Origin: a virus
Taxonomy: Duplodnaviria; Caudoviricetes
DNA: 34,187 bases
Direction: 5' to 3' (one strand)
IMG/VR virus record: IMGVR_UViG_3300037524_000103
Span: 1 to 34,187 of that record
Shown here: positions 2,679 to 32,749 of the stretch, piece after piece
How the letters are laid out: every line of letters starts with the position of its first letter
Numbering within the stretch: the stretch's first letter is position 1
Program-made: the position numbers and the translations under genes
The notes under the pieces: generated by a model
Told to the model about the DNA's origin: nothing
What the model saw: only the letters and a program-made list of their open reading frames with translations
Databases searched by the model: none

Positions 2679-3056
2679 TTATGCGTGCGTGATGGTCGCG
2701 GAGCTGATGGTCACGGTCTGGCCAGCAGTGATGTTGGTCGAGTCCAGGTTGATGTCCGACCCGCTCGTACCAACCGTCAGCCCAGTGATGATGTCCGTGC
2801 CCCCCGACGCTGTGCGAATGCGCGCTGCTGCTGCCGTGCCTGAAGCGTCAGCGCTGGTGTCCGACTTCGGGAACCCGCTCAGGGTGAGCACGCCAGCCCC
2901 GGCCGCAGCCCCGGCGATGGGGTTGTTCAACGAGATCGTCGCCAGGACGGATGCCATCGCGGCTGTGCCGATCTCAAGAACTGCCGTGGTGCCGGCGGCG
3001 GTAGTCACAGCGTCCATGCGGGCGCACTTGACGGCATTGGTATAGGTTACGGCCAT
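2679..3056 (-). CDS. Small virion structural protein (125 aa), paralog of 22847..23245
   Basis: GAGGT RBS; C-terminus NITAGQTVTISSATITHA aligns with SIANGQTVTITSFTITRGN. Confidence 0.8.
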   Translation of the reverse strand: MAVTYTNAVKCARMDAVTTAAGTTAVLEIGTAAMASVLATISLNNPIAGAAAGAGVLTLSGFPKSDTSADASGTAAAARIRTASGGTDIITGLTVGTSGSDINLDSTNITAGQTVTISSATITHA

Positions 3057-4103: not shown

Positions 4104-7100
4104 TCACTTCTTCAGGCAGTCGATGATGGACTTCATGAGCGACTCGCGCTCGTCCAGCTCGCGCATCATATCCTGCGCGTCCGCTGTCATGGTCGCCGTC
4201 TCGCCCGTCTCTGCCACCCGCACCTCGTAGGACAGCTTCTTGCCCTTCAGGTCAGCATACTCGGGCCCCAGATCGGCAAGCGTGCGGTCGGGGATGGGGG
4301 TGCGGATCTCCTCGTCGAGCTGCTCGCTGAACTGCGACTCCTCGCTGGTGTTGTTCTCCGGGTTGTTCAGGACACGGAGGATGTTCTTGTCGTTGAACAC
4401 GACGAAGTTGGTGCCGTCTTCGTAGGTGCCGCCGCGAGTGCTGTTAACGGGATAGCGGATACCTTTGATGCCGATGGAGTCAAGGTACTTGGACACTGCC
4501 TCGTCTTCCGGCAAGTTGCCATCGGCGTACCTTTGCTTGTCGGCTTTGCTCAGGTGCTCGTCGGGCAGCCCGCCTTCTCCTGCAACGGTTTTCAGGTACT
4601 TGTAGAGCGCTTCGCCATCGACGTTGCCGCCTGACCAATCTTCCGCCTCAGACACCCAATCGGCAAACTGCCCGGTAGTAAGAATGCCCTGAACGCGGCC
4701 GCTTTGTTCGTCTACCAGCCTGCTCCAGTCTAGCCACTCGTCGTCGGCGATGTTGAAGTCTGCAGTGTAGAGATTGCCAGCGACGTTTATCCCTTTGGCT
4801 TTTTTCCTCCGAACGTCGCTGTCGCGGTAGTTTTCTCCAACCCCGCGCAACTGACTGAAATACTGACCCCACCCAATGATTCGCCCGCCTTCGCCGCTAC
4901 CCATGTAGTCGTTCTTGAACTGGTGGACGTTGGCTGCAGTGCCGTGCCACTTGCCAGTCACGTTGATGCGCGCCGCACCGTAGCCGAGGTCGATGATGTC
5001 CTGCGGGGTGAGCGTGTCGATCTTGACGCCGAGCTTGCGCAGCGCGACCTTGAACGCGTGCCAGATGGTGCGGAGCATCGCGCCGAGAGGGCCGTCTGCC
5101 TTGGCTGCAGTGGGGTTGATGCCGGAGTTGACGGACTCTTCTAGGAAGTAGGCCACGAGTTCCGACGCGCCCTGCCCTTTGCCGACTTCGGCGGCCTTCA
5201 CGCGCGCAACCGCGCGCTTCGCCAGCGCCGTCTCCAGGCCGTCGCCCTCACGCTTCGACCATGACAGGATCTGCCGCGCGACGTTGGTGAACTTCTCCCC
5301 AGGCAGCAGCCTCTCCATGCCGAGGTGGCCACCGACTTCGTGGAGGAAGATGCCGCGCTCTGCGCCGACGCGCATGCGGTCTGCGATCAAGTACGCCGTA
5401 CCGTCACGCGCGAACGCGACGGGCTTCTTGCCCGACTTCTCCTTGGCGATCAGCTCGTCGATGGCCGCCTTCGGCAAGTACTTCGCGAGATCGCCAACGG
5501 TGTCGACAACGATGACGCGCTTGCCCAACGTGTCGGAGCGCATGAACGCCGTCAACGCATCTTCCAGCGTCTCGGCGGTGTGCATCACATCGCGCTTGTC
5601 GGACCGACGGTCCTGCACCGAGTACTGGTTGTCGTCTTCGTTGTCTGCCTGCTCGGCCGGGGGCTCGCCGCGTGTCGTGTCCGGGGCGGCTTTCTCGAAC
5701 GCGTCTTCCAGGGCCTTGCGGAACGAGGGCGACTTCTCGCGTCGGCGAAGTTCAGTGACGATAGTCTGCAACGCGGCTCTGTCTTGTGCCGCGTTCTTCT
5801 CAACGAACGGCTGCGAGAAGATGTACAGATCGGCGAGCTGCGCGTCGCTCAGCTTATCGAAGCCGATTTCAACCGCAGCGCGGTAGCGGGCGCGTGATGC
5901 CAACGGAGCAGTGACTTTCTTGCTCTCCGTCTTGCCGGCAAACTTTGCGCCCTTCTTCTCGGAGCCCACAGCCTCGTCGGAGTCCGCAGTCGAGTCAGGC
6001 TCGGCAACGATGATGGACGTAGCTTCTTGCGCGGCTTCTTCGGCAAACGACTTGGGCGGAGTTTCGTCCAACCCTTCAGCGCGCTCGTTGGCCTGCGCAT
6101 TGCTGCTCAGCCACTTCCTCCGCACCTGCATGGTCAGGCCCAACGCCTTCATCGCGTTGCTGACGCGGGAGCCACTGTTCTCTCCCAACCCGGCGCGCGC
6201 TGCTGCCTGCTGGTTCGTCAAGCCCTTGTCAAGCCGGTCCGACTGCGCGTCGACACCTAGAGCAAGACGCACAGCGTGGTGCAGGCGCGGGTCGACGGGC
6301 TCAAGGATGTCCTTGACCGCTTTCCAGTCGATGTCCCCGCCGAGTACGGCTCGGCGCTCCTTGGCCCGCTCGGCGACGAGCTGCTGCTCTTTGACGGTGC
6401 GGGTGATCTGCGCCCGACGCGACGGGACTACTGCAGGGGCGCTGGGCTGCCCCACTCCATCAACTGCAGGCGCAGCAGCAGGGGCACGTACTCCATCGGG
6501 AACTCCACGTACTCCGTCTGCTGCAGCAGGTACTCGTCCTGGAGCAGCCACGCCTCCTGCGTCGACAACACCCCCTGCATCACTGCCGACTCCAGCTCCG
6601 GGTCCAGGTACATCTGGAACGCTGACATTGGGTTGCTCCCCTACAAGCAGTTGATTGCCTACGTCCGGCTTGGTGGACGGGGCGACGAGGATCTGCGGCT
6701 GCTTCTGCGGAGCGGCCGGGGCGGGGGCGGGCATCGACCGCGAGACGATGAACTTCTCGACGGCCTTGTAGGCCGCAGGCTTGTCCTGCGCGTCGCGGAT
6801 GGAGGCGAACATGGTGTCACGCTCGTTCTCCGTGACCTGCCCACTTTCTACCAGCCTGTCCAGTTCATCGACGACGCTGCGTGCGCGCTTCTTGCTGTCG
6901 CCCACCTGCTGCACGTATCTTGCGAACTGCTTCTCAGCTTTCTTCGCAACGGGCTGTCCGCGCGTGGACTTCACACTATCCACAGCCGGCAGATCGAGCT
7001 TCGTGTTCCGCGGCGCGTACACACCCGGCGTCATGCTGGGGTTGGCGTCTTCGACGTTCGTCTCTGCCCACAGACCGGCTCGCGCAAGCGCGTCGCCCAT

Positions 7101-8312
7101 AGCCCCACCATCCGACAGGGGAGGCTGCTGCGCCTCGGTGAACGTCTGCTCCGGCACCCCACTGAACAGCCCGAACTGCGGCGTTGCCACCGTGTCCGCT
7201 CCACGTTGGAAGTCAGAGACGTAGCCGCCCAGGTCGTAGGGGTTGAACGCTCCGACAATGCCCGTGTTCGTATCAACAGATGAGAAGTCCGGCTGCGGCT
7301 TCTGCAGGAGGTCGATGGCTTCCGACGCGGCCTGTTCCCGGCGGGCGAATGCTTCTTGTCGTGCCGTCAGCCACTCGGCGATGGAACCAGCGTCCACACC
7401 TTGAGCGCGCGCTTCGCGCACGACAATGTCTTCCGCCTGGGCTCGGATCTTCGCGTCGGGGAACGCCAGCGCGGCATCGAGCTGCTTGGCAGCAGAAGCG
7501 CGGCGCACGTTACCGAATAAGGCAAGCGGGCCCAGAAGCGCAGTCAAGCCGATGGCTCCCTGCGCGGAGTCTTTGGCGATCTCCCAGGCATCCTGCGGCT
7601 GCGCGCCGTACCCACGCTCAACCAGCTCAGTGCCGACGTCCTGGCCAATTTCCGTCACCGGCTGCAGCGCGAAGTTGGCTGCCATGCCCTTGGCGAACGG
7701 CTTGAGTACGGACTGGTTGGTCATGCTGCCGACCACACCGCCCATCGTCTGAGCCCCACCGCCAAGCCACGCAGGCAGCAGAGGCCGCGCAAGGCCCAGC
7801 GCCTTGGCACCGAGATACGTCGCGCCGGCTTCACCAAGACCCTGGATGCCGCCAGTCCAGATACCCGCAGGAGTCGCCTCGTCGTTGGGCACACCCTGTA
7901 GCCGCAGCTTGTCCTCAGTGTCCTGCGCTTGCGAGAAACCAAACAATCCACCGGTCGCTGCGGCACCCAGCAGAGCGCCACCCCCAGGAACAGCCATCGC
8001 TGCAATGCCGGGAGCCATCGGGCCCACTGCTCGACCGCCCTTGATCAGCGTCTCGGCAAACGTCCCGCGCCCGCGCAGGTCAGGCTCCCACCCAGGAGCG
8101 CGCTCATCGGCGCTTTCTACAACGCTGCGGCCGAACTCGTCCAACGACGATCCATCGGGAGCCACGCGGCGCAGGCCCTGCCCGACCATCCGCGGGAGGT
8201 CAACAGCGAAACCCGCGCCGACCTGTCGGCCTACCTCGTAGGCGTCACTCCAGAACGGGCGATCCTCTTCCTTCTTGGAAGGTGCACCAAAGCTGTCGAA
8301 CAGGCTTGGCAT
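4104..8312 (-). CDS. Large ejected internal virion (polyvalent) protein: Gly/Ala-rich N-terminus, HTH, zincin-like metallopeptidase, ADP-ribosyltransferase-like fold (1402 aa)
   Basis: Third and largest gene of the ejection trio; HEVGGH (5325-5342) with downstream ELVAYF; WHGT...GSGEG...GWGQYFS...NFVVF (~4390-4950); LTNQQAAARAGLGENSGSRVS HTH-like segment; AGGT RBS. Confidence 0.85.
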   Translation of the reverse strand: MPSLFDSFGAPSKKEEDRPFWSDAYEVGRQVGAGFAVDLPRMVGQGLRRVAPDGSSLDEFGRSVVESADERAPGWEPDLRGRGTFAETLIKGGRAVGPMAPGIAAMAVPGGGALLGAAATGGLFGFSQAQDTEDKLRLQGVPNDEATPAGIWTGGIQGLGEAGATYLGAKALGLARPLLPAWLGGGAQTMGGVVGSMTNQSVLKPFAKGMAANFALQPVTEIGQDVGTELVERGYGAQPQDAWEIAKDSAQGAIGLTALLGPLALFGNVRRASAAKQLDAALAFPDAKIRAQAEDIVVREARAQGVDAGSIAEWLTARQEAFARREQAASEAIDLLQKPQPDFSSVDTNTGIVGAFNPYDLGGYVSDFQRGADTVATPQFGLFSGVPEQTFTEAQQPPLSDGGAMGDALARAGLWAETNVEDANPSMTPGVYAPRNTKLDLPAVDSVKSTRGQPVAKKAEKQFARYVQQVGDSKKRARSVVDELDRLVESGQVTENERDTMFASIRDAQDKPAAYKAVEKFIVSRSMPAPAPAAPQKQPQILVAPSTKPDVGNQLLVGEQPNVSVPDVPGPGAGVGSDAGGVVDAGGVAAPGRVPAAADGVRGVPDGVRAPAAAPAVDGVGQPSAPAVVPSRRAQITRTVKEQQLVAERAKERRAVLGGDIDWKAVKDILEPVDPRLHHAVRLALGVDAQSDRLDKGLTNQQAAARAGLGENSGSRVSNAMKALGLTMQVRRKWLSSNAQANERAEGLDETPPKSFAEEAAQEATSIIVAEPDSTADSDEAVGSEKKGAKFAGKTESKKVTAPLASRARYRAAVEIGFDKLSDAQLADLYIFSQPFVEKNAAQDRAALQTIVTELRRREKSPSFRKALEDAFEKAAPDTTRGEPPAEQADNEDDNQYSVQDRRSDKRDVMHTAETLEDALTAFMRSDTLGKRVIVVDTVGDLAKYLPKAAIDELIAKEKSGKKPVAFARDGTAYLIADRMRVGAERGIFLHEVGGHLGMERLLPGEKFTNVARQILSWSKREGDGLETALAKRAVARVKAAEVGKGQGASELVAYFLEESVNSGINPTAAKADGPLGAMLRTIWHAFKVALRKLGVKIDTLTPQDIIDLGYGAARINVTGKWHGTAANVHQFKNDYMGSGEGGRIIGWGQYFSQLRGVGENYRDSDVRRKKAKGINVAGNLYTADFNIADDEWLDWSRLVDEQSGRVQGILTTGQFADWVSEAEDWSGGNVDGEALYKYLKTVAGEGGLPDEHLSKADKQRYADGNLPEDEAVSKYLDSIGIKGIRYPVNSTRGGTYEDGTNFVVFNDKNILRVLNNPENNTSEESQFSEQLDEEIRTPIPDRTLADLGPEYADLKGKKLSYEVRVAETGETATMTADAQDMMRELDERESLMKSIIDCLKK
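6428..6628 (-). CDS. Overprinted acidic 66-aa protein nested in the +1 frame of the ejection-protein gene
   Basis: GGGGAG at 6636-6641, 7 nt before ATG; 63 of 66 sense codons end in G/C; host frame here is a low-complexity V/G/A/P/D linker. Confidence 0.8.
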   Translation of the reverse strand: MSAFQMYLDPELESAVMQGVLSTQEAWLLQDEYLLQQTEYVEFPMEYVPLLLRLQLMEWGSPAPLQ

Positions 8313-8319
8313 GTATCAC

Positions 8320-9663
8320 CTAGCGCCAGCTACCGGTGGGTTGCTCCCAAGGCAGCGCAGCGGGCCGTTGACCGATAGGAACCCCACGAGTGGGGGTCGG
8401 GAGCGCCGGCGGAGGTTCTTTCGGCGCAATGATTGGCGCGGGCAGTCCCGGCCTTCCGGCAGGAGCGGCGGGAGTCGGCTGCGTGTTGCCGCGCAGTAGT
8501 TGCGCAAGCGCCGCGGCAAACGCAGGGTCAACCGAGGCCCACTTGTTGATCTCTTCAATTTGCGCCGCGGGCGGGTCGCCGGCAATGGCACGAGCAGCCA
8601 TCTCGGGAGTAACTCGTCCAGTATGCACTGCCAGCGCACGCTGCCCCATAGCAACGTCGCCGCCAAACGACTCAGTAAACGCCGCCAGCGCGTCAGCAGT
8701 CTCCTTGGCGTTCATCTGCGGGCGTTCCCGCGCCGGCATCTTCAACCCCGGAGGCAACGCTGCGCTGCCGTCAGGCGCCTTCTTCAACGAGTTGACGTCG
8801 AAATACCTGGGCTCCCCAGTGGCCGCGTCCTGCAACTGCACCCAGTTGGGTTTGTTGGCAGCAGCTTGTCGAACACCGAGTTCCGCGTTAGCGATCCTTG
8901 TACGAGCCGCGTCGTTCTGTGCATTGAGGTATTTCGAGTACGCGTCATTGCTGGCGCGCGTGGCGTCAGCCTGTGCGGAGAACATGTCCTTGGCGCGCGA
9001 GTACAAGTCTTTGTCGATGCCGGACATGATCTGTAGCCCGGTCGCCACGTCGCCTTCTTCCATGTGCGCGTACGCCAGCGCCAACTGCTGGCGCTTGACG
9101 GCGTCGAGCGGGATCTGCTTGCGCTTTCCGTCGTTGAGAACCACGTCAACTGACTTGAACCCCGTGGGTTTGCCTTTCGAGTCCACGAGATCGCCGAAGG
9201 TGAACGGCATCTGCCCGTCAGTATTGATTGCCCCGTACCGCTGCTCGTACGCCTCCAACTGCTCCGGCGTCATGTTCTTGAAGCGGTCGGCGATGTTGAG
9301 CCGCTTGTCTTCAGCCATGCCCAGGCGCAAACCCTGCGAGTCGCCGCGTGCCGCGGCAAGTCCCTGCATCGCCGCGTTGAGTTCGCGCTCGGTCGCCTTG
9401 CGGAAGGGCATCGTCGGGCCGTACTGGGCTTCTTCCGCCGGGGTAGGGATGCCCCTGGTCTGGATGTCAGTCAACCGCGTCGTGGCGTCGTCGACGCGCT
9501 GCGCGTTGCGCATCTGCAGTCCGTGCGCCTCTGCGGCGCGTGCGTCAGCGGCTTTGCGAAGGTCGAGTTCCTGCTGCATGAGCAGCCCCCGCTGATAGCG
9601 ATCCGCCGCTTGGTTGGCGGAAGGGACGAACCCTGCTCCGAACCCACTCCAGAAGTCAGCCAT
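8320..9663 (-). CDS. Ejection/internal virion protein (447 aa)
   Basis: MADFWSGFGAGF N-terminus, helical A/Q/R-rich body, position between pilot-like and large ejection genes; GGAG RBS. Confidence 0.75.
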   Translation of the reverse strand: MADFWSGFGAGFVPSANQAADRYQRGLLMQQELDLRKAADARAAEAHGLQMRNAQRVDDATTRLTDIQTRGIPTPAEEAQYGPTMPFRKATERELNAAMQGLAAARGDSQGLRLGMAEDKRLNIADRFKNMTPEQLEAYEQRYGAINTDGQMPFTFGDLVDSKGKPTGFKSVDVVLNDGKRKQIPLDAVKRQQLALAYAHMEEGDVATGLQIMSGIDKDLYSRAKDMFSAQADATRASNDAYSKYLNAQNDAARTRIANAELGVRQAAANKPNWVQLQDAATGEPRYFDVNSLKKAPDGSAALPPGLKMPARERPQMNAKETADALAAFTESFGGDVAMGQRALAVHTGRVTPEMAARAIAGDPPAAQIEEINKWASVDPAFAAALAQLLRGNTQPTPAAPAGRPGLPAPIIAPKEPPPALPTPTRGVPIGQRPAALPWEQPTGSWR

Positions 9664-9665
9664 GC

Positions 9666-10565
9666 TTATCTCCAGATGGACTCAAGCTGTCGATTGCTCG
9701 GGCTGCTGATGCCCAAGCCACCACTGATGGCCCCGCCCAGGTTGGCGCCAACGACAGAACCCATCGGACCGAAGAACGAGCCGGCGATACCGCCAAGCGC
9801 GCTACCAAGCCCGCCCAGCCCACCAGATTGAGAGCGGCGGTAGTTCTGCTCCGCGATGCTGTCCCAGTTCTTAGCGGCCGAGCTACCCCAGTTCATCGCA
9901 GTAGCCTGTCCAGTGTTCTGTCCCGCCCAGGCTTGGTTGCCCGCACGGAAGCCGGTACCTCCTGCAGCGAGCGCGCTGCCGCTCAAGTCGCCGGACTGTC
10001 CGAGGTAGTTGCCGCTGGCGCCCATCAGGTTGCCGCCAAGCCCCGCAGCCGTGGCACGCAGGTTGAGCCCCTCGCGCTTCGCAGCTTCGTACGCCATCGT
10101 CGCAGCGCTGGCCTTGGCCAAGGCCCCCTCAAGCTCGATGTCAGCCAACGACGACTGCATCGCTGCGCTGTTCGGGTTCCACCCACGAGCCGTCAACCCG
10201 CGCGTGTACGCGCCACGAGCGCTGTCCAACTGCCCCTCGACGTTGGCAATGCCACGACCGGCCATGCGGTCGGCTTCTGCGGGGGTGGAGTACTGGTCGA
10301 CCAGTCTGTAGAACTCGTCTTCCTGTTTGGCGGTCGTGTCCCAGTACCGTTGGTCGAGCCGGCGCGAGCGGTCGTTGGCCTCCGTGGACAACCCTTTAAG
10401 GTAGTTCCACTGCTCAAGTCCTCGCTCGTTCTCAAGCGCAGCCTGCTGGCGGGCCCAGTTGTAGTAGTCCTCCGTCAGAGCCATCTGACGGTATGTCGCG
10501 TCGGTCTGCGCCTTGGCCAGATCGAGTTGCTCCTGAGGCGGCGGTGGTGCTTTCTTGCTTCCCAT
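9666..10565 (-). CDS. Ejection/DNA pilot-like internal virion protein (299 aa)
   Basis: MGSKKAPPPP start, coiled-coil body, Gly-rich hydrophobic C-terminus (GGLGGLGSALGGIAGSFFGPMG); follows the GNAT-like gene. Confidence 0.75.
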   Translation of the reverse strand: MGSKKAPPPPQEQLDLAKAQTDATYRQMALTEDYYNWARQQAALENERGLEQWNYLKGLSTEANDRSRRLDQRYWDTTAKQEDEFYRLVDQYSTPAEADRMAGRGIANVEGQLDSARGAYTRGLTARGWNPNSAAMQSSLADIELEGALAKASAATMAYEAAKREGLNLRATAAGLGGNLMGASGNYLGQSGDLSGSALAAGGTGFRAGNQAWAGQNTGQATAMNWGSSAAKNWDSIAEQNYRRSQSGGLGGLGSALGGIAGSFFGPMGSVVGANLGGAISGGLGISSPSNRQLESIWR

Positions 10566-10978
10566 CAGTGACTCCGGCTCAACATGCGCTGCGCGAACGG
10601 GTCAGTGCGCCACAAGGCGAACAGCAGCAAGTCGTGATCTCCACAGGCGCGCCGCAGCTGCGCCTCCTTGGTGGCGCCAAGCGCCGTGACGAAAGCAATG
10701 GCTTTAAGGTTCCCCGCAGAGACGGCGTAGGTCATCCGCTCCAGCCCGATGTGCTGGTAGACGTACTGAGCCACAGCGCGGAGCAAGGGGACGGGCATGC
10801 CGTCATCGCAGGCGACGTGGGCGAAGATGTTGTTGTCGGTCAAGCCGTCGAAGTACACGCCGGCAATCAGCTCGCCGTCTCGCTCGAAACCAAGCGCAGA
10901 GTTAACGGCCGGGGCAGGAGCGCCCCACCGGGCAGCCACCCAGTTTGCGACTTCCGTGTCTCGGCCGTACACCACCAT
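10565..10978 (-). CDS. GNAT-fold acetyltransferase-like virion assembly protein (137 aa)
   Basis: NLKAIAFVTALGATKEAQLR resembles the GNAT N-x-x-A...LGF-x-x-EG motif; typical position before ejection genes in podoviruses. Confidence 0.75.
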   Translation of the reverse strand: MVVYGRDTEVANWVAARWGAPAPAVNSALGFERDGELIAGVYFDGLTDNNIFAHVACDDGMPVPLLRAVAQYVYQHIGLERMTYAVSAGNLKAIAFVTALGATKEAQLRRACGDHDLLLFALWRTDPFAQRMLSRSH

Positions 10979-19018: not shown

Positions 19019-22000
19019 TTATGGCAGTTTCACAACGGCCGCTGGTTGATCGTGTGCAGCCACAAGCCCTATAGCCCTGTGCTCTTGCAGCCATGCAATA
19101 CGGCCATACTGCCCAACAGCATTCTTCGGGATCGGTGTGCTCAATGGGAACGCGGACGCCTCTAGCGTTTCAGCGTCGATGCGGGCGATCTGCGTGATTA
19201 CCCCACCAGTAGACTCTTTGCCACCAAGCGCCCAGAAACAGTCCTCTTGCTCGTCGTAAACGATGCCCATTGCCGCCGACAGAATACCGGCATGGCTTGC
19301 CAGGCTTACCTGCGTCTTTGTTGCCGTGTTTGCGGCCCAATTGATCGAAAGCAAGTAAACAACCAGCGTAGGCGAGTTGTAGCCAACCAGAAGGTATCTG
19401 TTTCGTGTTGGGTCGTAGCAGTAGCTCGGGTCCCAACTTCCACTGAACAGAGATATCGAGAACGACGTGAACGCACCCGTGCTCATGTCGAAGAATCCGT
19501 TATCCGTGCCACTTAGCGGTCTATTGGCGAAAATCTTCGACTCGTCGGGGGAGAGGATAAGTATCCCGCCAGTGTCGTTAATGTCGATGGGATAGTTGCC
19601 GTAGGTGCCGGTGTCCTCATCGAACCAATAGAACCCGCTTGGAGCCAGCGGCACTTGCCCGTTGTTGACATCGGGCCAAGATGAACTATTGCCTCTGTAG
19701 ATGCGGCGCCTTGATTGCGAGTACACCACATTGGAATAGGTGTGCACGGCATTTGGCTTGCCGTCTGCATAGGCTCCAACTCGCCAGTAAGAAACGATGG
19801 AATCCAGGGCGCTGCCTTCGCTGCGCGACCCTTCAAGCGTGTAGAAGCCTAATGGCCTAGTAGTTCCGCTCCAATCAAAAACGTGCCATCCGTTGTTGGC
19901 GCCGTCCGAGTGCCCGCCGCCTGAGAAAAACAAGCGCTTCGTGGTCGGGTCGTAAACGCCACCACTCCACGCGCTGATGATCCCCTCAGTTTGGAACCGA
20001 GCGCTTCCGTTCCACGGCGGCGGCTGTGATGCGCGGAACGTCGCAGCACCCAAAGGCGCATAGGCCCCGGTGAGCTGCCGCACCTCGAACGGCTGCATGC
20101 CGTCCGTGTAGTGACCCGTAGCCGGCGCCGGAGGTGATGGGGTGAACGATGGCGGAACCGCAGGCTCGGGTATGTAGTCGCTCGGCATCACGCCTACATC
20201 GGGAATAGGCAGCGGCTCCCTAGAAACTATGATGTCTGTGAACTCGACAGCGGTCGTTCCTTTCGGCGGCGGCTGACCGCCAGATCCTATGTAGATGTTT
20301 CCGAACGAACCGAACTGCAACATGCTCAAGCCGGGTGGGTTCTGCTGATAGTGCCCTGCGTGGTTCTTGTCGTCACCGAACATCCAGGCGTAGCTTGGAT
20401 AATCTATGATGCGCTTCCACTTTGTATCGCCCGGCTCTGCCACGAAAACTTTTATTTCCGTCCGGTAATCTGCGTCGTAGGCTGCCGGCTCAGGAACCTT
20501 CTCTTGCGCCCTGTTAGCCGCAAGGTTTGTGTTGTAGTCAACCCACGGTTGGACTGCGTTGTCCCTGCCAAAGTCGAAGTGGATCATGTACGTGACCCAC
20601 ACATTACCAGGGAAGCGCCAGCCTGCATCCGCACTGGTGAGCGTCGGATACGTCGCTAGTGGGTAATCCTCTTGATGGTGCACCCGATAGCCAAAGGTGC
20701 TGTTGTCTTTCGTAACCTCCCCAGGCCATGACGGCGGCATAACTAGCGTTGAAGGCTCATGCGCCGCAGAATCGTTGTACTGGGTGTAAGGGACCAGGCG
20801 GCTGCCTCTACCGTCTGGACGCACGTTGTCTGGATCACCGCCAGCGTTCCAAACAAATTGCCCGTGCCCGGACATATCGTTCTGAATGAAAAAGTGCTTT
20901 GCCGTGCCTAGCAAAATTCTGTTGGCGTTCAGCTTGCTTCTGAACTGAATCCAGACACTTTGCCCTTCAAATACGTCTGTTCTGACGTAGTTGTTTGAGT
21001 TCACCGGATTTGGTGGCACCCAATCCTTGTACTCGGCTACACCGTAGGCTGGATTCCAGTAAGACCTATGCCCCCAGTATCCTTGTAGAAAATGCGTAGT
21101 TCTGTCACCGCGGGTCGTAACCCGTTCCCCATTAGCCTTGAACGGGGGCCAATCTCTAGGTTTGACCGCAGCCCCGTTAGTGATGCCGATGTCGTCGCGG
21201 ATGCCGTTGATCCGCTTGGCACACATAAAGCGCTCCCAAGCGCCCGTTGAGTCAGTCCCGATCCTTATTTCATGAATGGCTAGAAGCGCTGCGGCAGTGG
21301 TCGCGGTTGACCCGCCACCGTAAGACACACCCATATAACCGTAGGAGCTTCCTGTGGTCCTACGCAGCAGCGTAATCTCGTTCGTCTCATAGTTTAGGCT
21401 TTCGACGCGAACAATCTCTAGGTTTCTAGTTCCGCCCCCTTCGCCTACTTCTGAACCTTTCAGCCCGACATGTACGTCGAATGGGTACGGTCCATCAGGC
21501 CACTCTGACAAGTCCGACACCCTCCAAACTTGTCGGGCTACCTCGGGGGTAGATTTATTCAAGTAGTACGAAGGACACGCCGGCACATCCTCAACCAGCA
21601 ATGACCCAACGGTTTTCTGTGTCAACGCCCAGCCGCCCAGGCTTGTACTCACCCGTGCGGGGGCATTGAATTCTGTTGGCTCAGCTTTGGAGAACTGATC
21701 GACTTCCCAATCCGCCGCAAAGTTGTGGTGGAACAGAACGGAATTGCGGAACGCACGATCAGCCCACGATCCATCCCCGAAGATAAGGGTGTCGGTGTTG
21801 ACGATGGGGTAGCTGGAACTGTTGACAAGCCGCAGCTTGGAGTTACCAGCCGAGTGCCGGTAGACCCAGAACTCCTTGCGTCCTACTTCCCCGGCAGCCC
21901 AGCTAACCGTTGACGGATAGACCGTGGTCTGATCTGTGCCTTCTGTGGCGAACAGCACCGCACTGCAGGCAGTTTGAATAGGGCCGTTGGGCTGGACGGC

Positions 22001-22834
22001 GAAGCGCACCCAGGTATTCGGCTTGCCGCCCTTGGCGCCGAGTAGATCAAGCCTTGTGGCGTTGACCTTGGTGACTGTGACCGGGGCGCCGACCTTCGTC
22101 GGAAGCGGATGCGTTGCAACGGAGGAAGCTCGCTTGATGACTACATCTAAAGTCTCTGGCGCGGCAGTGGTGAAGATGACATCCTTGTAGGACTCTCCGA
22201 TCTCGCCTGTCTTCAGGGAGAACGCAAATGTCCTGACCCCGCCCTTCATCACATCAATTTCATACGACCCGGGCGCGGGCTGATTCAGCTCCACAATTAC
22301 CGTGTACGGTTTGTAAAGCTCGACCACCGATGGGAATGTGACGGTGGCGGTGAGCGCCACAGGATCGGCCACGGTAAGCGTGATCGTGTTCGTCGTCAGC
22401 GCGGGGCTGGTCGTGATGCCGATGGTGTAGGTGCCATTGGCCGCGGCGGTGTGGGTGAAGGTGTAGACCTTCGAGTTGACGGTGACCACCGGACCGAACG
22501 TGCCGCCGCCCGTACTGGTGGGGATGATTTCAAGCCCATCGGGGGGCTCACCGTTCAGAGTGACGGTGTACGTCACGGGCGTGCCCACTGCTGCGGACGT
22601 GGAGCCTGTCAGAGTGGCTTGGTACGCGATAGCCATCGCGGCCGCTGAAACGGTGTCGATCTCATCCACCGTGGCCAGCGTGACGCTTCTGGGGGCTCCA
22701 TTCTCAAGCTGCGTGAGCGCTACCAACAGGTCGGCGTCATCGACCTGCCCCAGTGCAACGCGCGGCCCGAACCGGCCGCCGTGGGCTACCCCACCCGACT
22801 GGATCTTGTACCGCTTGTCAATGGGCGCCGGCAC
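19019..22834 (-). CDS. Large multi-domain virion appendage/adhesin: Ig-like domains, lectin/lyase-like sandwich, C-terminal Kelch-like propeller (1271 aa)
   Basis: GTG start with AAGGA RBS; T/V-rich Ig-like N-terminal part; Pro-rich linker; AWSGGVYD...SGGGHSD...KPNAVHTY propeller-type motifs. Confidence 0.7.
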   Translation of the reverse strand: MPAPIDKRYKIQSGGVAHGGRFGPRVALGQVDDADLLVALTQLENGAPRSVTLATVDEIDTVSAAAMAIAYQATLTGSTSAAVGTPVTYTVTLNGEPPDGLEIIPTSTGGGTFGPVVTVNSKVYTFTHTAAANGTYTIGITTSPALTTNTITLTVADPVALTATVTFPSVVELYKPYTVIVELNQPAPGSYEIDVMKGGVRTFAFSLKTGEIGESYKDVIFTTAAPETLDVVIKRASSVATHPLPTKVGAPVTVTKVNATRLDLLGAKGGKPNTWVRFAVQPNGPIQTACSAVLFATEGTDQTTVYPSTVSWAAGEVGRKEFWVYRHSAGNSKLRLVNSSSYPIVNTDTLIFGDGSWADRAFRNSVLFHHNFAADWEVDQFSKAEPTEFNAPARVSTSLGGWALTQKTVGSLLVEDVPACPSYYLNKSTPEVARQVWRVSDLSEWPDGPYPFDVHVGLKGSEVGEGGGTRNLEIVRVESLNYETNEITLLRRTTGSSYGYMGVSYGGGSTATTAAALLAIHEIRIGTDSTGAWERFMCAKRINGIRDDIGITNGAAVKPRDWPPFKANGERVTTRGDRTTHFLQGYWGHRSYWNPAYGVAEYKDWVPPNPVNSNNYVRTDVFEGQSVWIQFRSKLNANRILLGTAKHFFIQNDMSGHGQFVWNAGGDPDNVRPDGRGSRLVPYTQYNDSAAHEPSTLVMPPSWPGEVTKDNSTFGYRVHHQEDYPLATYPTLTSADAGWRFPGNVWVTYMIHFDFGRDNAVQPWVDYNTNLAANRAQEKVPEPAAYDADYRTEIKVFVAEPGDTKWKRIIDYPSYAWMFGDDKNHAGHYQQNPPGLSMLQFGSFGNIYIGSGGQPPPKGTTAVEFTDIIVSREPLPIPDVGVMPSDYIPEPAVPPSFTPSPPAPATGHYTDGMQPFEVRQLTGAYAPLGAATFRASQPPPWNGSARFQTEGIISAWSGGVYDPTTKRLFFSGGGHSDGANNGWHVFDWSGTTRPLGFYTLEGSRSEGSALDSIVSYWRVGAYADGKPNAVHTYSNVVYSQSRRRIYRGNSSSWPDVNNGQVPLAPSGFYWFDEDTGTYGNYPIDINDTGGILILSPDESKIFANRPLSGTDNGFFDMSTGAFTSFSISLFSGSWDPSYCYDPTRNRYLLVGYNSPTLVVYLLSINWAANTATKTQVSLASHAGILSAAMGIVYDEQEDCFWALGGKESTGGVITQIARIDAETLEASAFPLSTPIPKNAVGQYGRIAWLQEHRAIGLVAAHDQPAAVVKLP

Positions 22835-22846
22835 GGCCGGGCTTCC

Positions 22847-23245
22847 TTAGTTGCCGCGAGTGATCGTGAACGACGTGATCGTGACGGTCTGCCCGTTGGC
22901 GATGCTGTTCACGTCGGGGACCATCTCCTGGCCGGCGCCGAACGTGCCCTGGATGCAGGAGTCCGTACCGTTGTTCTTGAAGATGCGGAAAAACGTGCCC
23001 GCGACACCTGCGCCTGCGCCGGATTGCCCCGTCAGGGTCCAGGTGCCGGACTTGGTGATGACGCCAGCGCTTGTCGTAAGCGCAGTCGCGGGCAGCACGC
23101 CCTCGGCGATGATTACCGCCGCGCCAACGGAAGTCGTTTCGTTGGCGGGAACTGCGCCGGAGTAGACGCGACAGACCGGCGCGCTGCCGACTTCGGAGAT
23201 CAGACCAGCCTGCTGGGCGTTGCGAACGGCATCGGAATAGAACAT
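22847..23245 (-). CDS. Small virion structural protein (132 aa), paralog of 2679..3056
   Basis: AGGAG RBS; shares Y-x-x-AV, AGV-x-T-x-SG and GQTVTI-x-S-x-TIT motifs with the paralog. Confidence 0.8.
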   Translation of the reverse strand: MFYSDAVRNAQQAGLISEVGSAPVCRVYSGAVPANETTSVGAAVIIAEGVLPATALTTSAGVITKSGTWTLTGQSGAGAGVAGTFFRIFKNNGTDSCIQGTFGAGQEMVPDVNSIANGQTVTITSFTITRGN

Positions 23246-25687: not shown

Positions 25688-26725
25688 TTAGCCGTAGACG
25701 ACGGCAGTAGCCAGCGCCGTGCCCTTGACCACTTTGTGCCCAAAGACCTGCAGGCTGCGGACCAGATCACCAAAGTCGGTCGGGTTGCGCAGTTGCTCAG
25801 TCTTCGTGATCTGCGAAGCGAATGTGATGGCGCTGGTGTGGCCAGCAGCCAGCAGGCGGCGCGCGTTGGCGTTGGTCGTCGCAGCGATGCTGTTCTCGGA
25901 GCCGTCACCCGACACCCACAACGTCGCGTTGGCGGCGGCCGTCGGCAGGTTGTTGGTCACGTACACCTTGAAGCGGTCGATCATGCCAACCATGCCGTTG
26001 CGGACCATCGAGCGCGGGTCGCCCATCTGGTCAGCGTACGCCAGCTTGGTGCTCATCAGCTTCAGACGGGTAGCCGGGTCAATCAGCAGCCAGCGGCCAG
26101 ACTCGGGCACGTTCTGCTCATCCAACACCGACGCCATCTTCAGGATCAGGTCCAGCGTGGTGTCAGCCGAAGCGCCGAGGTTGACCGGAGCACCGTCCGT
26201 GCCGAGGTTGTAGCTGGCCGACTTGCGGCCAGCCGTCGCGCCCTTGTTGGCCGCAACCGTGCCGTCTTCGTTAGAGCCAGTGGCCGCAGTCAGCAGGCTG
26301 CGATACAGGCAGGTCGAGTCGATCACGATGCGCAGCTGCTCCGACGCGTCGTCGGTGAACATCGACATCAGGTCGGGCTTCGACTGGTACTCCAGCACGT
26401 CCGCCACGTTGAAGGCGAAGTACTTAGCCCGGTCGATGGCCAGCTCGACGGTGTTCGGCGTCGGGGTCTGATACGACAGGTTGCCGCCCACAACGTAGTC
26501 GCTGACGGTCAGCGACGGGATGTTGTTGATGACGACCTTGTCGCCCAGGTTGGCGATGTCGCCTTCCCAGTCGCGGTTGCAGATGTCGGCAAAGGTACTT
26601 GCCAAATAGAATTTACTATTCAGCTTCGCCGACCAGATGCTCGGAATGAACGTACCGGAGTACGCGGGCGAGGTGTTATACGCCGCCCCAACGGGGGTGA
26701 CGGCACCGGCGGTAATGGTAGCCAT
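25688..26725 (-). CDS. Major capsid protein (345 aa)
   Basis: FIPSIWSAKL, WEGDI...GDKVVI, LDEQNVPESGRW, FGDLVRSLQVFGHKVV; AGGAG RBS; follows the scaffold gene. Confidence 0.92.
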   Translation of the reverse strand: MATITAGAVTPVGAAYNTSPAYSGTFIPSIWSAKLNSKFYLASTFADICNRDWEGDIANLGDKVVINNIPSLTVSDYVVGGNLSYQTPTPNTVELAIDRAKYFAFNVADVLEYQSKPDLMSMFTDDASEQLRIVIDSTCLYRSLLTAATGSNEDGTVAANKGATAGRKSASYNLGTDGAPVNLGASADTTLDLILKMASVLDEQNVPESGRWLLIDPATRLKLMSTKLAYADQMGDPRSMVRNGMVGMIDRFKVYVTNNLPTAAANATLWVSGDGSENSIAATTNANARRLLAAGHTSAITFASQITKTEQLRNPTDFGDLVRSLQVFGHKVVKGTALATAVVYG

Positions 26726-26759
26726 TTGGATTACTCCTAGGGGGTGACCGCCACCACCG

Positions 26760-26773
26760 GTTTACACGTAAGC
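26760..26773. promoter_or_regulatory. Palindromic box GTTTAC-AC-GTAAGC
   Basis: Intergenic between scaffold and capsid; TTACACGTAAGCA is identical to 31349-31361. Confidence 0.7.
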
Positions 26774-26774
26774 A

Positions 26775-27746
26775 CTAGACTACGCGGCCCTCGGCGACAG
26801 CACGGTCGATTTCGGTTTGTAGACGCTCAGCTTCCGCATCGCGTCCGCGGTACTTGCCTTTCGCCAAGTCGTCGTAGAACTGCTTGATCAGTCGCTGGGA
26901 GACCATGCGCCTGACCGGCTCGCCCTGCGGCGTCGGCGTGGGCTGCCCTGAGCTGCTAGGCGTCTGCTGAGCGTTCAGCGTCGGCTTGGCTGGCTGGGAA
27001 GCCCGGAACTGGTTGAAGATCGCAATGACCCGCTTTGCGTCCATGCGTTGATGCGCGGTATCCAGCGCGACTTGGCGCGGGGCTCCGTAGACCTCGTCTA
27101 CCTCACCCAGCCACGCCAGCCACCGGTCGTCGGCATTGATCTGCCTCCAATCCGGCACGGCCTGATCCAGCGCTCCGTAGAACGCCTGCTCAAGAGTCAT
27201 CTCGGTCTTTTGGCTAACCCCGGTGACCTGTCCTTCGAGCGCCTTGAGACGCTTGTCGAGGTCGGCGGCTGTGACGGACACGTCTTTACGCATCAGCTCC
27301 AACGCGTTGGCCACGTACCGCTGCACCATCGCCACAAGATCCTCACCAAACTCCGCAGCGTCGCGGGGATCGGCTTTCGGCGTCTCGGGAGCGGGGGCCG
27401 TCTTGGCCGTCGCAGCGGCGGTCAGCACCTGAACTTGCTGGGTCAGCTGGTTGAGCTGACTCTCCAGCGCCTTGTTCTGGGCTTTCTCCGCAGTCCACAT
27501 ACCCTGAAGGGTACGGAACCTGTTCTCCATCGAGTCGTCGGACTTGGGCGCGGCAGCGGGGGTCGCTGCGGCTGGAGCTTGGGCAGGAGTCGGCGTCGGT
27601 GCCTCGTTGGCGGCAGGAGCGGGTTCGCTCAGTTGGGTGATGTCGGTAACGACACCCTCCGTCGAGTTACCTGCTGCTACTGCGGCGCCTTGAAGGGTCG
27701 CCTCGGCCGCGTCGAGCTGACGCTGCACAGTCTTGGGAATTGCCAT
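26775..27746 (-). CDS. Capsid scaffolding protein (323 aa)
   Basis: P/A-rich N-terminus, RFRTLQG coiled coil, VPDWRQIN, C-terminal AEGRV; AAGGAG RBS; precedes the capsid gene. Confidence 0.85.
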   Translation of the reverse strand: MAIPKTVQRQLDAAEATLQGAAVAAGNSTEGVVTDITQLSEPAPAANEAPTPTPAQAPAAATPAAAPKSDDSMENRFRTLQGMWTAEKAQNKALESQLNQLTQQVQVLTAAATAKTAPAPETPKADPRDAAEFGEDLVAMVQRYVANALELMRKDVSVTAADLDKRLKALEGQVTGVSQKTEMTLEQAFYGALDQAVPDWRQINADDRWLAWLGEVDEVYGAPRQVALDTAHQRMDAKRVIAIFNQFRASQPAKPTLNAQQTPSSSGQPTPTPQGEPVRRMVSQRLIKQFYDDLAKGKYRGRDAEAERLQTEIDRAVAEGRVV

Positions 27747-27790
27747 TCTACGGTCTCCTTGCGCTGCCAGTATCGACTAGCGCCTGGGTT

Positions 27791-27823
27791 AAAAACCGCG
27801 GATACTCGGCATAGTATCAGCGG
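27791..27823 (-). terminator. Terminator-like hairpin upstream of the scaffold gene
   Basis: Minus strand CCGC-T-GATACT-ATGCCG-AGTATC-C-GCGG-TTTTT: 10 of 11 bp paired plus U5; overlaps the stop of 27817..28008. Confidence 0.65.
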
Positions 27824-28008
27824 GCTTGGGATTCGTCTAGTAGTTTGATTAACTTTTCGACGAATTGAACCTTTCCCTGGGCTCGAAACAAAACTACGTT
27901 GTCCGTCCCCTCGGCAAGATACCTGTACGCGTCGGCTTTCTCCTTCTCAAGCCACGGACGCAGTACGTTCCTAGGGATTCTGGAGAATATCTCCAGGTCG
28001 TTGTTCAT
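27817..28008 (-). CDS. Small conserved-type head-region protein (63 aa)
   Basis: LFRAQG motif and position between portal and scaffold, typical of small podoviral head-region proteins. Confidence 0.7.
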   Translation of the reverse strand: MNNDLEIFSRIPRNVLRPWLEKEKADAYRYLAEGTDNVVLFRAQGKVQFVEKLIKLLDESQAR

Positions 28009-28010
28009 AT

Positions 28011-28196
28011 TCAGAGTTGTTGTCCGCGATACAGCGGGGTGATCACGCCGTGAAGGTCGATGGCTTTCTGCTCGGCACGGGCTCGGTCAAGAAACACTGC
28101 CGCGTGCCCGTTGTACTCGACCAACCACGCGACAGGGCGTTCCGCCTGTGCGGCGTTCCCACACTGCTTGCCGGTGGTCAGGTCGACGGGGATCAC
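28011..28196 (-). CDS. Hypothetical protein (61 aa)
   Basis: GTGA overlap with the upstream gene; fills the gap exactly; RPVAWLV motif. Confidence 0.6.
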   Translation of the reverse strand: MIPVDLTTGKQCGNAAQAERPVAWLVEYNGHAAVFLDRARAEQKAIDLHGVITPLYRGQQL

Positions 28197-28606
28197 TCTC
28201 TTTCGTCATTTTTGGGATGAATCACCCGATCCACCCATGTAGCCAACGTGCGCGTTCCGGCGTACCCAGCCAGGAGCAGCACCATCGCCAACGAAGCGGG
28301 CCCTATCTCCTGCGTCATCCCGCCCCAGTACCCCGACAGACCGATCACGGTCGATACAGCACCATCCCGAGCAAACTCTCGTCCGGTGTGGAACGGCTTG
28401 CGCTCGTAGGTCGCCGTGACCATGCGCCCGAGACTGGCAGCAAAGCCACCGATCCACGACACGATCACCCCCACGCCGGCCTGCGCCCAAGGAAGCGCCA
28501 ACAAGTTAGGGCCAGCCAACTCCATCGCGGCCCAGGACGTACCCCAGGCCGCGGCGAAGTAGATGAGGACAAAGTTCCTCAGGCGCTGCCGCAGTCGTTC
28601 CGGCAT
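28193..28606 (-). CDS. Putative holin-like membrane protein (137 aa)
   Basis: 3-4 hydrophobic segments, LLAGYAGTR motif, charged C-terminus. Confidence 0.6.
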   Translation of the reverse strand: MPERLRQRLRNFVLIYFAAAWGTSWAAMELAGPNLLALPWAQAGVGVIVSWIGGFAASLGRMVTATYERKPFHTGREFARDGAVSTVIGLSGYWGGMTQEIGPASLAMVLLLAGYAGTRTLATWVDRVIHPKNDERE

Positions 28607-29031
28607 GATGGCTCTCGTTCTTCGCGTTGTTCATGAGCAAGAGCCGCGGCCTCAATGGTGATACCCGCAGCAACAAGGACATAGTAGAGCCCCACCTGCA
28701 CTACGGCCGCGGGGTCACCGGTTGCGACAAACGCCCGAATGCCAAACGCGGCAGCCAGTGCGGAATAGGTAGCCACACAGAACTGGTGCCGCCAGCGCAT
28801 TGGGAAACTAGGCAAGATCAGGCCGCGACGCAGTATGTCGTGCCACGCAATGTCGGCGAGCGCGAGCCCACTCAGTACAAGAACTGCGACGTTGACGACG
28901 TCAATGACCGTACTGCTGCCAGCAGCACGATACGCCAGCGAAAGCGGCGCGAATAACTGCAACCCCGCCGTCCACATGGAGGCGACGACAATCATTACGC
29001 GCGCAGAAGTGGCGTGCAGGTCAGTTACCAC
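28579..29031 (-). CDS. Membrane protein, possible holin/antiholin partner (150 aa)
   Basis: Four hydrophobic segments, charged C-terminus; overlaps the next gene by 28 nt. Confidence 0.6.
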   Translation of the reverse strand: MVTDLHATSARVMIVVASMWTAGLQLFAPLSLAYRAAGSSTVIDVVNVAVLVLSGLALADIAWHDILRRGLILPSFPMRWRHQFCVATYSALAAAFGIRAFVATGDPAAVVQVGLYYVLVAAGITIEAAALAHEQREEREPSCRNDCGSA

Positions 29032-29052
29032 GCAACCTACCCAGACAACACG

Positions 29053-29223
29053 TCACTTCTTGCCTAGGCGGCGCTGCATGTTCTTCATCATCCCGCCGGT
29101 CGCCTTGGCTGCAACGGCCGGAACCTTGCCGTAGCCAGGGGCAGCGGGCTTCGCTGCGGGAGCGCCTGCGCGGGTACGCGCCTGATTCTTCATGCCACCA
29201 CCGAGAGATTTCTTTCCAAACAT
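29053..29223 (-). CDS. Small highly basic peptide (56 aa), not in the ORF track
   Basis: AGGAG RBS overlapping the portal stop; MFGKKSLGGGMKNQARTRAGAPAAKPAAPGYGKVPAVAAKATGGMMKNMQRRLGKK. Confidence 0.75.
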   Translation of the reverse strand: MFGKKSLGGGMKNQARTRAGAPAAKPAAPGYGKVPAVAAKATGGMMKNMQRRLGKK

Positions 29224-29232
29224 GATGAACTC

Positions 29233-31326: not shown

Positions 31327-31334
31327 GGCGCCTC

Positions 31335-31360
31335 AGTCTAGCACGTACTTACACGTAAGC
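31335..31360 (-). promoter_or_regulatory. Palindromic box ACTTAC-AC-GTAAGC (31347-31360) plus extended -10 (TGcTAGACT)
   Basis: Overlaps the TerL stop; TAGACT (31335-31340) lies 6 nt downstream, the same geometry as the 11280 copy. Confidence 0.6.
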
Positions 31361-32749
31361 ATAGCTCACCGGCTTGATCTCCACACGAGTGCTCGTGTGT
31401 CTCGCCCCGAACGTCGTGCCGTTGTCGGCGTGCATGGCCACGTACTGCGCACAGTCCGCGATGTCCGACCAGGGGTGGCTCTTCTCCGGCGTGTCGTCCT
31501 TCTGCCCCTTGGTGTTGATCTTGTAGCGGTACTTGCTCCGCAAGGCGGTCACGAGCTGGGCTGCGTGGGTCTTGTCGATCAGCATGCACGGCCTACCGTC
31601 GACGGTGCGGGTCAGGTAACTCTCGACCGCGGCGATGCGTGCCGCGATGGCGTTGGTCCGCGCCGGGATGACCTTGAACCCCTCGGCCTTGTAGATGTCT
31701 GCGACGGTGCGCTCGTCGGTCTGCGCCCGCTGGAACGCTGCGGGGTCGATGACGATGACCGCCGGCCTGCCCGCGTACTTATTCGACAGCAGCGGCTTCA
31801 GCCGCTCGCGCACGAAGCGCAACGCCCCCATGCTCTCCCCGGTGATCGCGTCGTGGATGATGAGCCGGGACTGGTAGTCAAGCTGCCCGATGACCGCTGC
31901 GGGGGTGAGCCCTGCGTCCACGCCGATGATGAGCGGCGAGCTGAGGATGTTGAGTGACGCGGCGGTGTGTCTCTCGGTGTCGAAGCTCTTGCCGAACACC
32001 GGCTCGCCAGACAGGCTGCGCCCGAACTTGTTGTCGATGTAGACCGCGATCCAGTCGTCAGTTTTCCCCTGCGCGAGATCGTCGTAGTAGTCCTCCGGCA
32101 GGTGCTCCAGCCAGTCCGCCTCCGGGCTGCGCGCCGAGGGCTGTATGAACACCGACGCGTTGTCCGGCGCGTTGTCCATGTACTCCGCCCACCACGAATC
32201 CTGATCTGGCGGGTTCGTCGCGCCCCACACGTGCCGGTTCGGCTTCCCATCGTCGGTCACGCACCCGCCGTCCTTCATCGAGGGGTAGCGCCCCACACGC
32301 GCCTGCAGCGCGTTGAAGATGTCCGGGTTGATCTCTCGGAACTCATCCAGCACGCCGAAGCTCACCTCCAGGGACAGTAGCCGGCGCACGTCGTTCGCGT
32401 CGTCCAGGCCCCTGAACAGGATCGTGCACTCCACGTCCCCGAACTTGAGCAGGAACTTCTTCTCCGTCTTGTGATACGTCCCTGCGACATCCGGCGGGAA
32501 CCACGTGTTGAACGTGGGCAGCGTGGAATCGGACAGCATCTCGGCCGTGTTGCGCAAGACCACTGCCCTGGAACGGCGTATGCCGTCCTTCTGCTTGCGC
32601 ATGCGCGCCGCATGGTACGCGATCTTCAGCATGGACGCGCTGCTCTTGCCGCTGCCCACCGGGCCACACACGAGGCTGATGAACGACTCGCTCGTCAGGA
32701 ACCCCTGCAGTGATGGCGGGGCCTTGTAGACAGTGACCTCGTCACTCAT
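31349..32749 (-). CDS. terL: Terminase large subunit (466 aa)
   Basis: Walker A GPVGSGKS, Walker B FGVLDE, ATNPP coupling motif, nuclease IGVDAG and SDIADCAQY. Confidence 0.95.
   Translation of the reverse strand: MSDEVTVYKAPPSLQGFLTSESFISLVCGPVGSGKSSASMLKIAYHAARMRKQKDGIRRSRAVVLRNTAEMLSDSTLPTFNTWFPPDVAGTYHKTEKKFLLKFGDVECTILFRGLDDANDVRRLLSLEVSFGVLDEFREINPDIFNALQARVGRYPSMKDGGCVTDDGKPNRHVWGATNPPDQDSWWAEYMDNAPDNASVFIQPSARSPEADWLEHLPEDYYDDLAQGKTDDWIAVYIDNKFGRSLSGEPVFGKSFDTERHTAASLNILSSPLIIGVDAGLTPAAVIGQLDYQSRLIIHDAITGESMGALRFVRERLKPLLSNKYAGRPAVIVIDPAAFQRAQTDERTVADIYKAEGFKVIPARTNAIAARIAAVESYLTRTVDGRPCMLIDKTHAAQLVTALRSKYRYKINTKGQKDDTPEKSHPWSDIADCAQYVAMHADNGTTFGARHTSTRVEIKPVSYAYV

Follow-up and report, generated by a model that had tools for sequence, protein, structure and literature searches.

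Can a small reading frame that lies entirely within the coding sequence of a giant phage ejection protein be a gene in its own right and, if so, what would its product do there? The question is raised by IMG/VR virus record IMGVR_UViG_3300037524_000103, a tailed-phage record (Duplodnaviria; Caudoviricetes) of 34 kb that is ∼58% complete; its 34,187 nucleotides are referred to here as the window. The gene for a polyvalent ejection-type protein, the host gene, contains in its +1 frame an open reading frame (ORF) of 66 codons. A first-pass annotation had read this ORF as an overprinted gene for a candidate antidote or chaperone, and proposed that its acidic product is an inseparable antidote for an adjacent helix-turn-helix (HTH), peptidase or ART domain of the host protein. 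Comparative sequence analysis indicates that the ORF is almost certainly a conserved small gene under purifying selection, and not a by-product. We call its family A, and tentatively place its product among the accessory factors of virion assembly.

The signals that the first-pass annotation had described at the ORF were all recovered. A Shine-Dalgarno (SD)-like GGGGAG precedes the ATG, and an in-frame TAG lies upstream of it (Table 1). Sixty-three of the 66 codons end in G or C; with 67% of first positions in the rest of the host gene being G/C, the probability of 63 or more is 2e-8. Other 66-codon windows of that gene reach 55 at most at the matching positions. Across the overlap the G/C content of host third codon positions falls from 0.78 to 20 of 67. 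The product has 10 Asp/Glu, one Arg and no Lys, and is rich in Leu and aromatic residues. An open +1 frame is by itself weak evidence: with the host linker protein held fixed and typical codons, that frame is open 38% of the time at the window, and 40% on average over 31 clusters. Two further +1 ORFs (72-83 codons) are present in the host gene of the window, with no codon shift. It is conservation, and not the openness of the +1 frame, that is decisive for a gene.

Homologues form 41 clusters at 80% identity, to which the cultured phages BA3, vB_ValP_FGH (FGH) and VvAW1 are added, and all of them are nested in the +1 frame of a giant polyvalent or DarB-like gene. Protein searches gave 8 and 21 matches, nearly all of 55-70 amino acids; the 8 with context sit on contigs of 0.5-3 kb, where the cut host gene probably let the gene caller see the nested frame. 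Loci with flanking sequence came from scans of DNA. The motif scan returned 88 matches, 48 of them at 48 bits or more; the remaining 40, at 9 bits or less, were taken as chance. All 48 strong matches keep the host frame open (at least 675 codons in the 41 with long flanks), whereas none of the chance matches exceeded 446 codons. L002, L023 and P0023 were dropped as false, like the 40 chance matches. The nested gene is carried by 70 of 112 scanned sequences, a count that includes duplicates, the window and the window's own locus. The host frame is open in 70/70, and the carriers hold 50 distinct proteins in 33 clusters. No matches were obtained when the window nested protein and the host N-terminus were compared directly with cultured phages by tblastn, or in a scan with the whole window host protein.

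Since the ATG and EAW..QD were built into the motif scan, two independent routes to the family matter. Along the first, 57 loci picked by the host peptidase alone yielded 17 carriers, three of them seen before; their addition brings the clusters to 41. The gene is nested at +1 in 17/17, an ATG or GTG start stands in register in 17/17, and an SD motif, read by eye, precedes 16. Along the second, the fold model of the nested protein matched the viral structure A8HNW3 (110 amino acids; template modelling score 0.74, root-mean-square deviation 1.6, E 0.055), which we take to be the entry of Thalassomonas phage BA3 and which led to BA3_0004. This gene (EU124666; ABV74289.1; L112:8141-8473) codes for 110 amino acids in the +1 frame of the 2631-residue BA3_0002, and matches the family A profile at E 4e-7 when all six frames of the genome are searched. 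GenBank lists it as hypothetical, with a start annotated 46 codons upstream of the probable one. The same arrangement recurs in the Vibrio phages FGH and VvAW1, whose homologues are not annotated. The nested proteins of BA3 and FGH are 71% identical, and the host segments after them are non-homologous. BA3_0003 (L112:5036-5380) is also nested at +1; it looks like a shadow frame.

For the nested frame, the ratio of nonsynonymous to synonymous substitution rates (dN/dS) came to 0.25 over 18 disjoint close pairs; for the host frame it was 1.68 and for the host flanks 0.29. The host-frame value above 1 arises because second positions of the nested codons are constrained, and does not denote positive selection. 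Differences fall on nested codon positions as 125/93/225, and in 440 of 528 pairs the host frame is less conserved across the overlap than the nested one. An SD motif stands ahead of 28 of 36 cluster starts, compared with 147 of 1539 control +1 ATGs in the same genes, and the product measures 61-70 amino acids in 35 of the 36 clusters. The first-pass annotation is supported in that the gene is real and independently initiated, and that selection acts on the nested frame over an unconstrained host linker. The host frame is open in 31/31 clusters, against ∼7 expected; it is also selected to stay open, and is read through the nested gene.

The nesting is confirmed, but overprinting in the sense of a new gene over an older, constrained one is doubtful: in the overlap the host frame is unconstrained (dN/dS 1.68) and seems to be the by-product. 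De novo overprinting and the capture of an existing gene would fit equally well; in the second case a small gene may have been captured in the giant gene, which would then read it as a spacer. Stop codons begin with T, and in a gene with G/C-ending codons the frame that reads its third positions first is stop-free at 0.23, against 0.05 for the other frame. Such a gene tends to leave that frame stop-free, so capture as a spacer would be an easy route; this explains why nearly all cases are +1.

The fold model (predicted local distance difference test score, pLDDT, 80) has three predicted helices, at residues 10-17, 23-35 and 45-59. L8, L12, E25-A26-W27, Q30-D31, P44 and R53 are conserved in family A, and E25, W27, Q30 and D31 would form a conserved acidic-aromatic patch on the predicted three-helix fold. 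Acidity, correctly noted for the window product, is usual in the family but not shared by all of it: the net charge is at or below −5 in 31 of 41 clusters and spans −10 to 0. With the nested protein as query, a wide VIA search gave no match (best Z 4.0) and an ESM Atlas search returned unnamed clusters only. A resemblance seen by eye, to SHOCT, MshEN or plectin hairpins, is backed by no search result. One metatranscriptome holds two 151-base contigs identical to window positions 6231-6381 and 6438-6588, at a depth of 2; they may be DNA, are silent on translation and were left uncounted.

The carrier hosts are mosaic polyvalent or DarB-like proteins of 1400-3600 amino acids, and relatives of the host gene carry LPD38/39, Eco57I methylase, SNF2 and Acb1. 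Residues 1375-1515 of one carrier's giant protein (L004) are an anti-CBASS Acb1 domain. All 40 N-terminal regions compared join one cluster, weakly, by single linkage; an iterated profile reached only 9. In 37 of 38 complete genes the nested start falls between host residues 420 and 731, within the linker that follows the N-terminal domain, and family A is single copy in 30/30 carrier records. Similarity among nested proteins follows that of the acyltransferase (Mantel rho 0.78, n = 12), the 447-residue gene (0.60, n = 9), the 299-residue gene (0.48, n = 20) and the capsid protein (rho 0.84, n = 6), against only 0.06-0.25 for the giant protein's N-terminal domain; these samples are small, and the N-terminal domain is possibly saturated. 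In its behaviour family A resembles a long-established accessory gene within the virion module, with the giant's domains exchanged around it.

The reading that we prefer, and hold tentatively, is that family A is an accessory virion-assembly factor with a loading or chaperone role for ejection cargo. The nested gene would be translated separately, from its own ribosome-binding site on the same mRNA and, to judge from its place in the operon, late. Its product would bind a conserved ejection or assembly component, and not the shuffled effector domains, and may help to load the ejection cargo or keep it soluble. The role would be accessory and replaceable, as unrelated nested genes take the place of family A in the same slot. 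In this it may work like Ulx and DdrB, the Dar accessory proteins of phage P1 that help to put giant anti-restriction cargo into the head (passages of PMC9024508 and PMC12810830); the likeness is functional only.

Several points weigh against this assignment. Ulx and DdrB are, in the same passages, products of ordinary separate genes and are themselves in the virion. The nested protein has no match in Pfam, PHROGs, PDB sequences or Foldseek PDB, and no homologue of known function. Similar hosts occur without family A: L151 is 47% identical to the window host in the N-terminal domain and 43% in the peptidase, and Vibrio phage 1.183.O is 80% identical to BA3 over the last 1800 host residues and has no family A in its whole genome, so that the gene must be dispensable or replaced. 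Plain vertical inheritance could also produce the co-descent with virion genes, and excessive divergence may have left the N-terminal domain without a signal (its similarity does not follow that of the acyltransferase either). Finally, carriers span unrelated capsid types, the window capsid protein having matches in 6 of 36 records, and this sets a limit to the specificity of any structural partner.

Somewhat less probable, though a serious competitor, is that family A is a passenger late gene for which the linker is a parking slot, and which acts elsewhere, on the bacterial cell (lysis timing, exclusion or counter-defence), or as a small packaged protein. This would agree with the occupation of one slot by unrelated families. 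Among the 48 peptidase-picked loci with a full 5′ end (the 9 partial ones of the 57 were dropped), the slot holds family A in 17, family B in 21 and family E in 2. A and B are never together (Fisher p 2e-6, kinship not corrected), an exclusion that also fits one shared job. It would also agree with family D, which is basic, is found together with A or B and has a weak match (E 5e-4) to phrog_1375, whose members are called as separate genes, and with the 59% identity of the window nested protein to those of L004 and L008, despite hosts without BLAST similarity to the window host. However, family A was never found outside a giant ejection gene in loci with flanks (70/70, 17/17 and the three cultured phages), and none of 401 sampled bacterial genomes matched it in a search that had no positive control.

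Nesting is, as far as sequence can tell, a general habit of these giant genes: related giants without family A usually carry other SD-led +1 genes, and there are at least seven further nested families, five of them in four or more loci (Table 1). Family F lies ∼170 residues ahead of a ResIII/strawberry-notch-type helicase in the 4/4 loci complete enough to see, and family H ∼280-300 residues ahead of an Eco57I-type methylase in 3/3. The TnpV likeness of family H (E 0.015) falls below the Pfam cut-off. For family H there are matches in 21 phage records, in each case beneath a single large annotated gene (in Itty13, annotated on the opposite strand), and family F has matches in 8. Of five records whose frame was checked, four are at +1 and one, PBC5, is in frame. 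Profile homology of A to B, E, F or G was not found (hhalign below 0.3%); against one sequence, A and H reach an hhalign probability of 1.1%, and the 20 aligned columns have a G..(S/T)..EAW motif in common. At least four of the 48 loci (L121, L122, L125 and L168) have no convincing nested gene, nor do 1.183.O and PTXU04. The giant gene of Pseudomonas phage Itty13 (L115:7999-18612) is unannotated, and three 'hypothetical' genes are annotated on the opposite strand.

A more speculative reading, which we consider unlikely while taking it seriously, is that these genes are organized as two-layer cassettes. Each exchangeable module would carry its own hidden +1 helper in the adjoining linker (H for the methylase-SNF2 core, F for the strawberry-notch-type helicase, and A, B or E for the ejection head), and recombination would move effector and dedicated loader or regulator together. 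Family A would then be the loader of the ejection head across unrelated capsid types.

The antidote reading now appears improbable. It would have the nested protein cover the neighbouring HTH, peptidase or ART domain while the cell makes virions, and stay behind when the head is packaged. The mostly acidic character of family A speaks for it, as do the fixed distances that families H and F keep to one module, and a broad peptidase inhibitor would be compatible with the HExxH or HExxxH motif that 32 of 34 carrier hosts possess; that motif is also present in 5 of 6 non-carrier cultured hosts. The claimed inseparability is not supported: of the 34 carriers, only 3 have a window-type HTH domain, 3 a window-type peptidase and 4 a window-type ART domain. 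The same peptidase clade is found without family A in 31 of the 48 loci. ART accompanies family A in 10 of them, occurs without it in 23 of 33 ART loci, and is absent from 7 of the 17 carriers. L121 has both HTH and peptidase and lacks family A. A cognate antidote should travel with its target, and family A does not co-occur with one cognate domain, so the antidote reading is unsupported.

Three further explanations fare worse. Internal initiation could throttle or pace translation of the giant protein as a cis-acting device, the peptide itself having little weight. The strength of the SD motif would suit this, as would the weak structure around the start (over 31 clusters the median lies at the 14th percentile of host-gene windows), but selection at the amino-acid level, the narrow length range and a fold kept at 24% identity make it very unlikely. 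Slightly less plausible again is an alternative C-terminus, with a +1 frameshift joining the N-terminal ejection domain to the nested frame in a short isoform. A family H sequence does stand in frame at the C-terminus of the annotated 2180-residue gene of Sinorhizobium phage PBC5 (L179; record 26155-32697), as a natural fusion or through sequence error. Against a frameshift, conservation begins at the Met; in 5 of 33 clusters the open +1 stretch ahead of it spans just 3-4 codons, and its length varies up to 365; and the start has an SD motif and interchanges GTG with ATG.

A selfish out-of-frame insertion seems more remote still. The comparison is with the ShiLan domain, an out-of-frame HNH insertion in a phage methylase (PMC11855218). 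As in that account, an out-of-frame gene missed by annotation is read through by its host as a loop or spacer; the patchy presence of family A among related hosts would also suit a selfish element. Family A differs in having no nuclease signature (no Pfam match, and a 66-residue all-helical model) and no sign of homing; it is single copy, tracks virion genes, and is one of several unrelated nested families. That the ORF is no gene at all, a by-product of linker composition as the 40% openness by composition would permit, is hardly credible in view of the conserved motif matches, the open host frames, the dN/dS values, the independent fold and peptidase routes and the cultured-phage homologues.

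The minus strand of the window holds a podovirus-type morphogenesis operon, with terminase, SU10-type portal and adaptor, capsid, tail proteins, the acyltransferase, two mid-sized virion genes and the 1402-residue gene; no sigma-70 promoter was found upstream. Polyvalent phage proteins are described as having a late context, mosaic domains, an HEXXXH peptidase and an ART-like domain (Iyer et al. 2017, main text of PMC5512222), and the window host fits on each count. By motif and relatives, the host gene thus appears to code for a polyvalent protein, with several unrelated effector domains, including a zincin-like peptidase, in a late phage context. The host protein has no direct Pfam match; its metallopeptidase-like domain is modelled (pLDDT 82) with three strands ahead of the HEXXXH helix, and gave no significant match in a Foldseek fold search. 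From gene position, the N-terminal domain would have an ejection role and the protein would be packaged and injected; the DarB-like protein of phage JC1 is virion-associated (main text of PMC9144972).

Other features of the window were noted. At 1402 residues its host protein is short, without the long C-terminal region of relatives (2000-3600 amino acids), and its last 30 residues resemble the C-termini of the L005 and L018 hosts. A helix-Gly-helix motif lies ahead of the nested gene (∼6720-6900, host residues 475-505), with look-alikes in the L006 and L007 hosts; it may be SHOCT-like, and a profile found 1 of 34. A 1271-residue gene at 19019-22834 (GC 0.56, below the rest) is beta-rich, has no family match and is possibly an acquired surface or tail protein. 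Two paralogues of the virion structural protein phrog_3758 (2679-3056 and 22847-23245) flank the tail and ejection block.

Table 1. Coordinates of the nested gene, its host gene and the other nested families. Coordinates without a locus name are those of the window.
Feature	Coordinates	Strand or frame	Description
Nested gene (family A)	6428..6628	(-)	66 aa, ATG start, +1 frame; overlaps host residues 562-628
SD-like GGGGAG	6636..6641	(-)	7 nt ahead of nested ATG
In-frame TAG	6641..6643	(-)	five codons upstream of nested ATG
Host gene	4104..8312	(-)	polyvalent ejection-type protein, 1402 aa; last gene named in morphogenesis operon
Host linker	host residues 562-628	(-)	G/A/V/P-rich, read through nested gene
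Host N-terminal Gly/Ala-rich helical domain	7338..8156	(-)	highly diverged form in all 40 giant proteins compared (single-linkage)
HTH-like host domain	6093..6356	(-)	directly downstream of nested gene; HTH label by eye; 3/34 carriers
Metallopeptidase-like host domain	4938..5582	(-)	invariant HEVGxH (HEXXXH type of Iyer 2017)
ART-like host domain	4425..4952	(-)	profile matches L078 residues 1242-1286, within Pfam ART-PolyVal match
Three upstream late genes	8320..10978	(-)	447 aa; 299 aa phrog_8003 virion protein; 137 aa phrog_4470 acyltransferase
Family B	L124:6463-6699 and 21 other loci	+1	∼80 aa, same linker slot as A; nested 22/22; dN/dS 0.22 (8 pairs)
Family C	L130:6394-6570 and 9 other loci	+1	∼57 aa, right after family B, tandem; nested 10/10; dN/dS 0.18 (2 pairs)
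Family D	L137:7639-7809 and 34 other loci	+1	∼50 aa, very basic, ahead of peptidase; nested 35/35; dN/dS 0.16 (14 pairs)
Family E	L166:6298-6471; L172:7384-7557		58 aa, acidic, same slot as A; C-terminal His as in 20/79 family A members
Family F	L117:12044-12433; L119:11393-11788; L120; L175; L177		∼130 aa; 8 phage records match
Family G	L174:5413-5595 and 6931-7146; L176		61 aa; twice nested in one giant gene (L174)
Family H	L115:13013-13336 (Itty13); L114 (VvAW1, host residue 742); L074 (host residue 1365)		weakly TnpV-like

We conclude that family A is a real new family of embedded gene, with an architecture known from Rz/Rz1 and ShiLan and in a class of host known since Iyer 2017. In phage lambda, Rz1 lies in the +1 frame of Rz. 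Such embedding of the spanin gene Rz1 inside Rz (main text of PMC9144972) is shared by family A, a small gene wholly within a larger late gene of the same strand, with its own start. In contrast to Rz1, the window protein has no lipoprotein signal or Cys, and its host is an ejection protein of 1400-3600 amino acids and not Rz. Furthermore, Rz and Rz1 are obligate partners, whereas family A is dispensable or replaceable and the host frame is an unconstrained linker. The main text of PMC5512222 makes no mention of overlapping or nested genes ('nested', 'embedded' and 'reading frame' there concern other things), and no description of nested genes in DarB-like or polyvalent genes was found in the literature searched, which included the main texts of PMC5512222, PMC9144972 and PMC3558961 and few subscription papers.

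A conserved family and at least seven others lie unannotated inside the largest genes of many podoviruses, cultured phages included, and stretches that passed for disordered linkers code in two frames. Anyone who deletes from, recodes or engineers the cargo of DarB-like genes would lose the nested genes without noticing, and proteomics against annotated proteins is blind to these families. BA3, FGH and VvAW1 make family A testable. If the nested proteins are loaders or regulators, they would bear on how cargo of 250-500 kDa enters podovirus heads without P1-type accessory genes, a gap noted for Bcep22-like phages (main text of PMC9144972).

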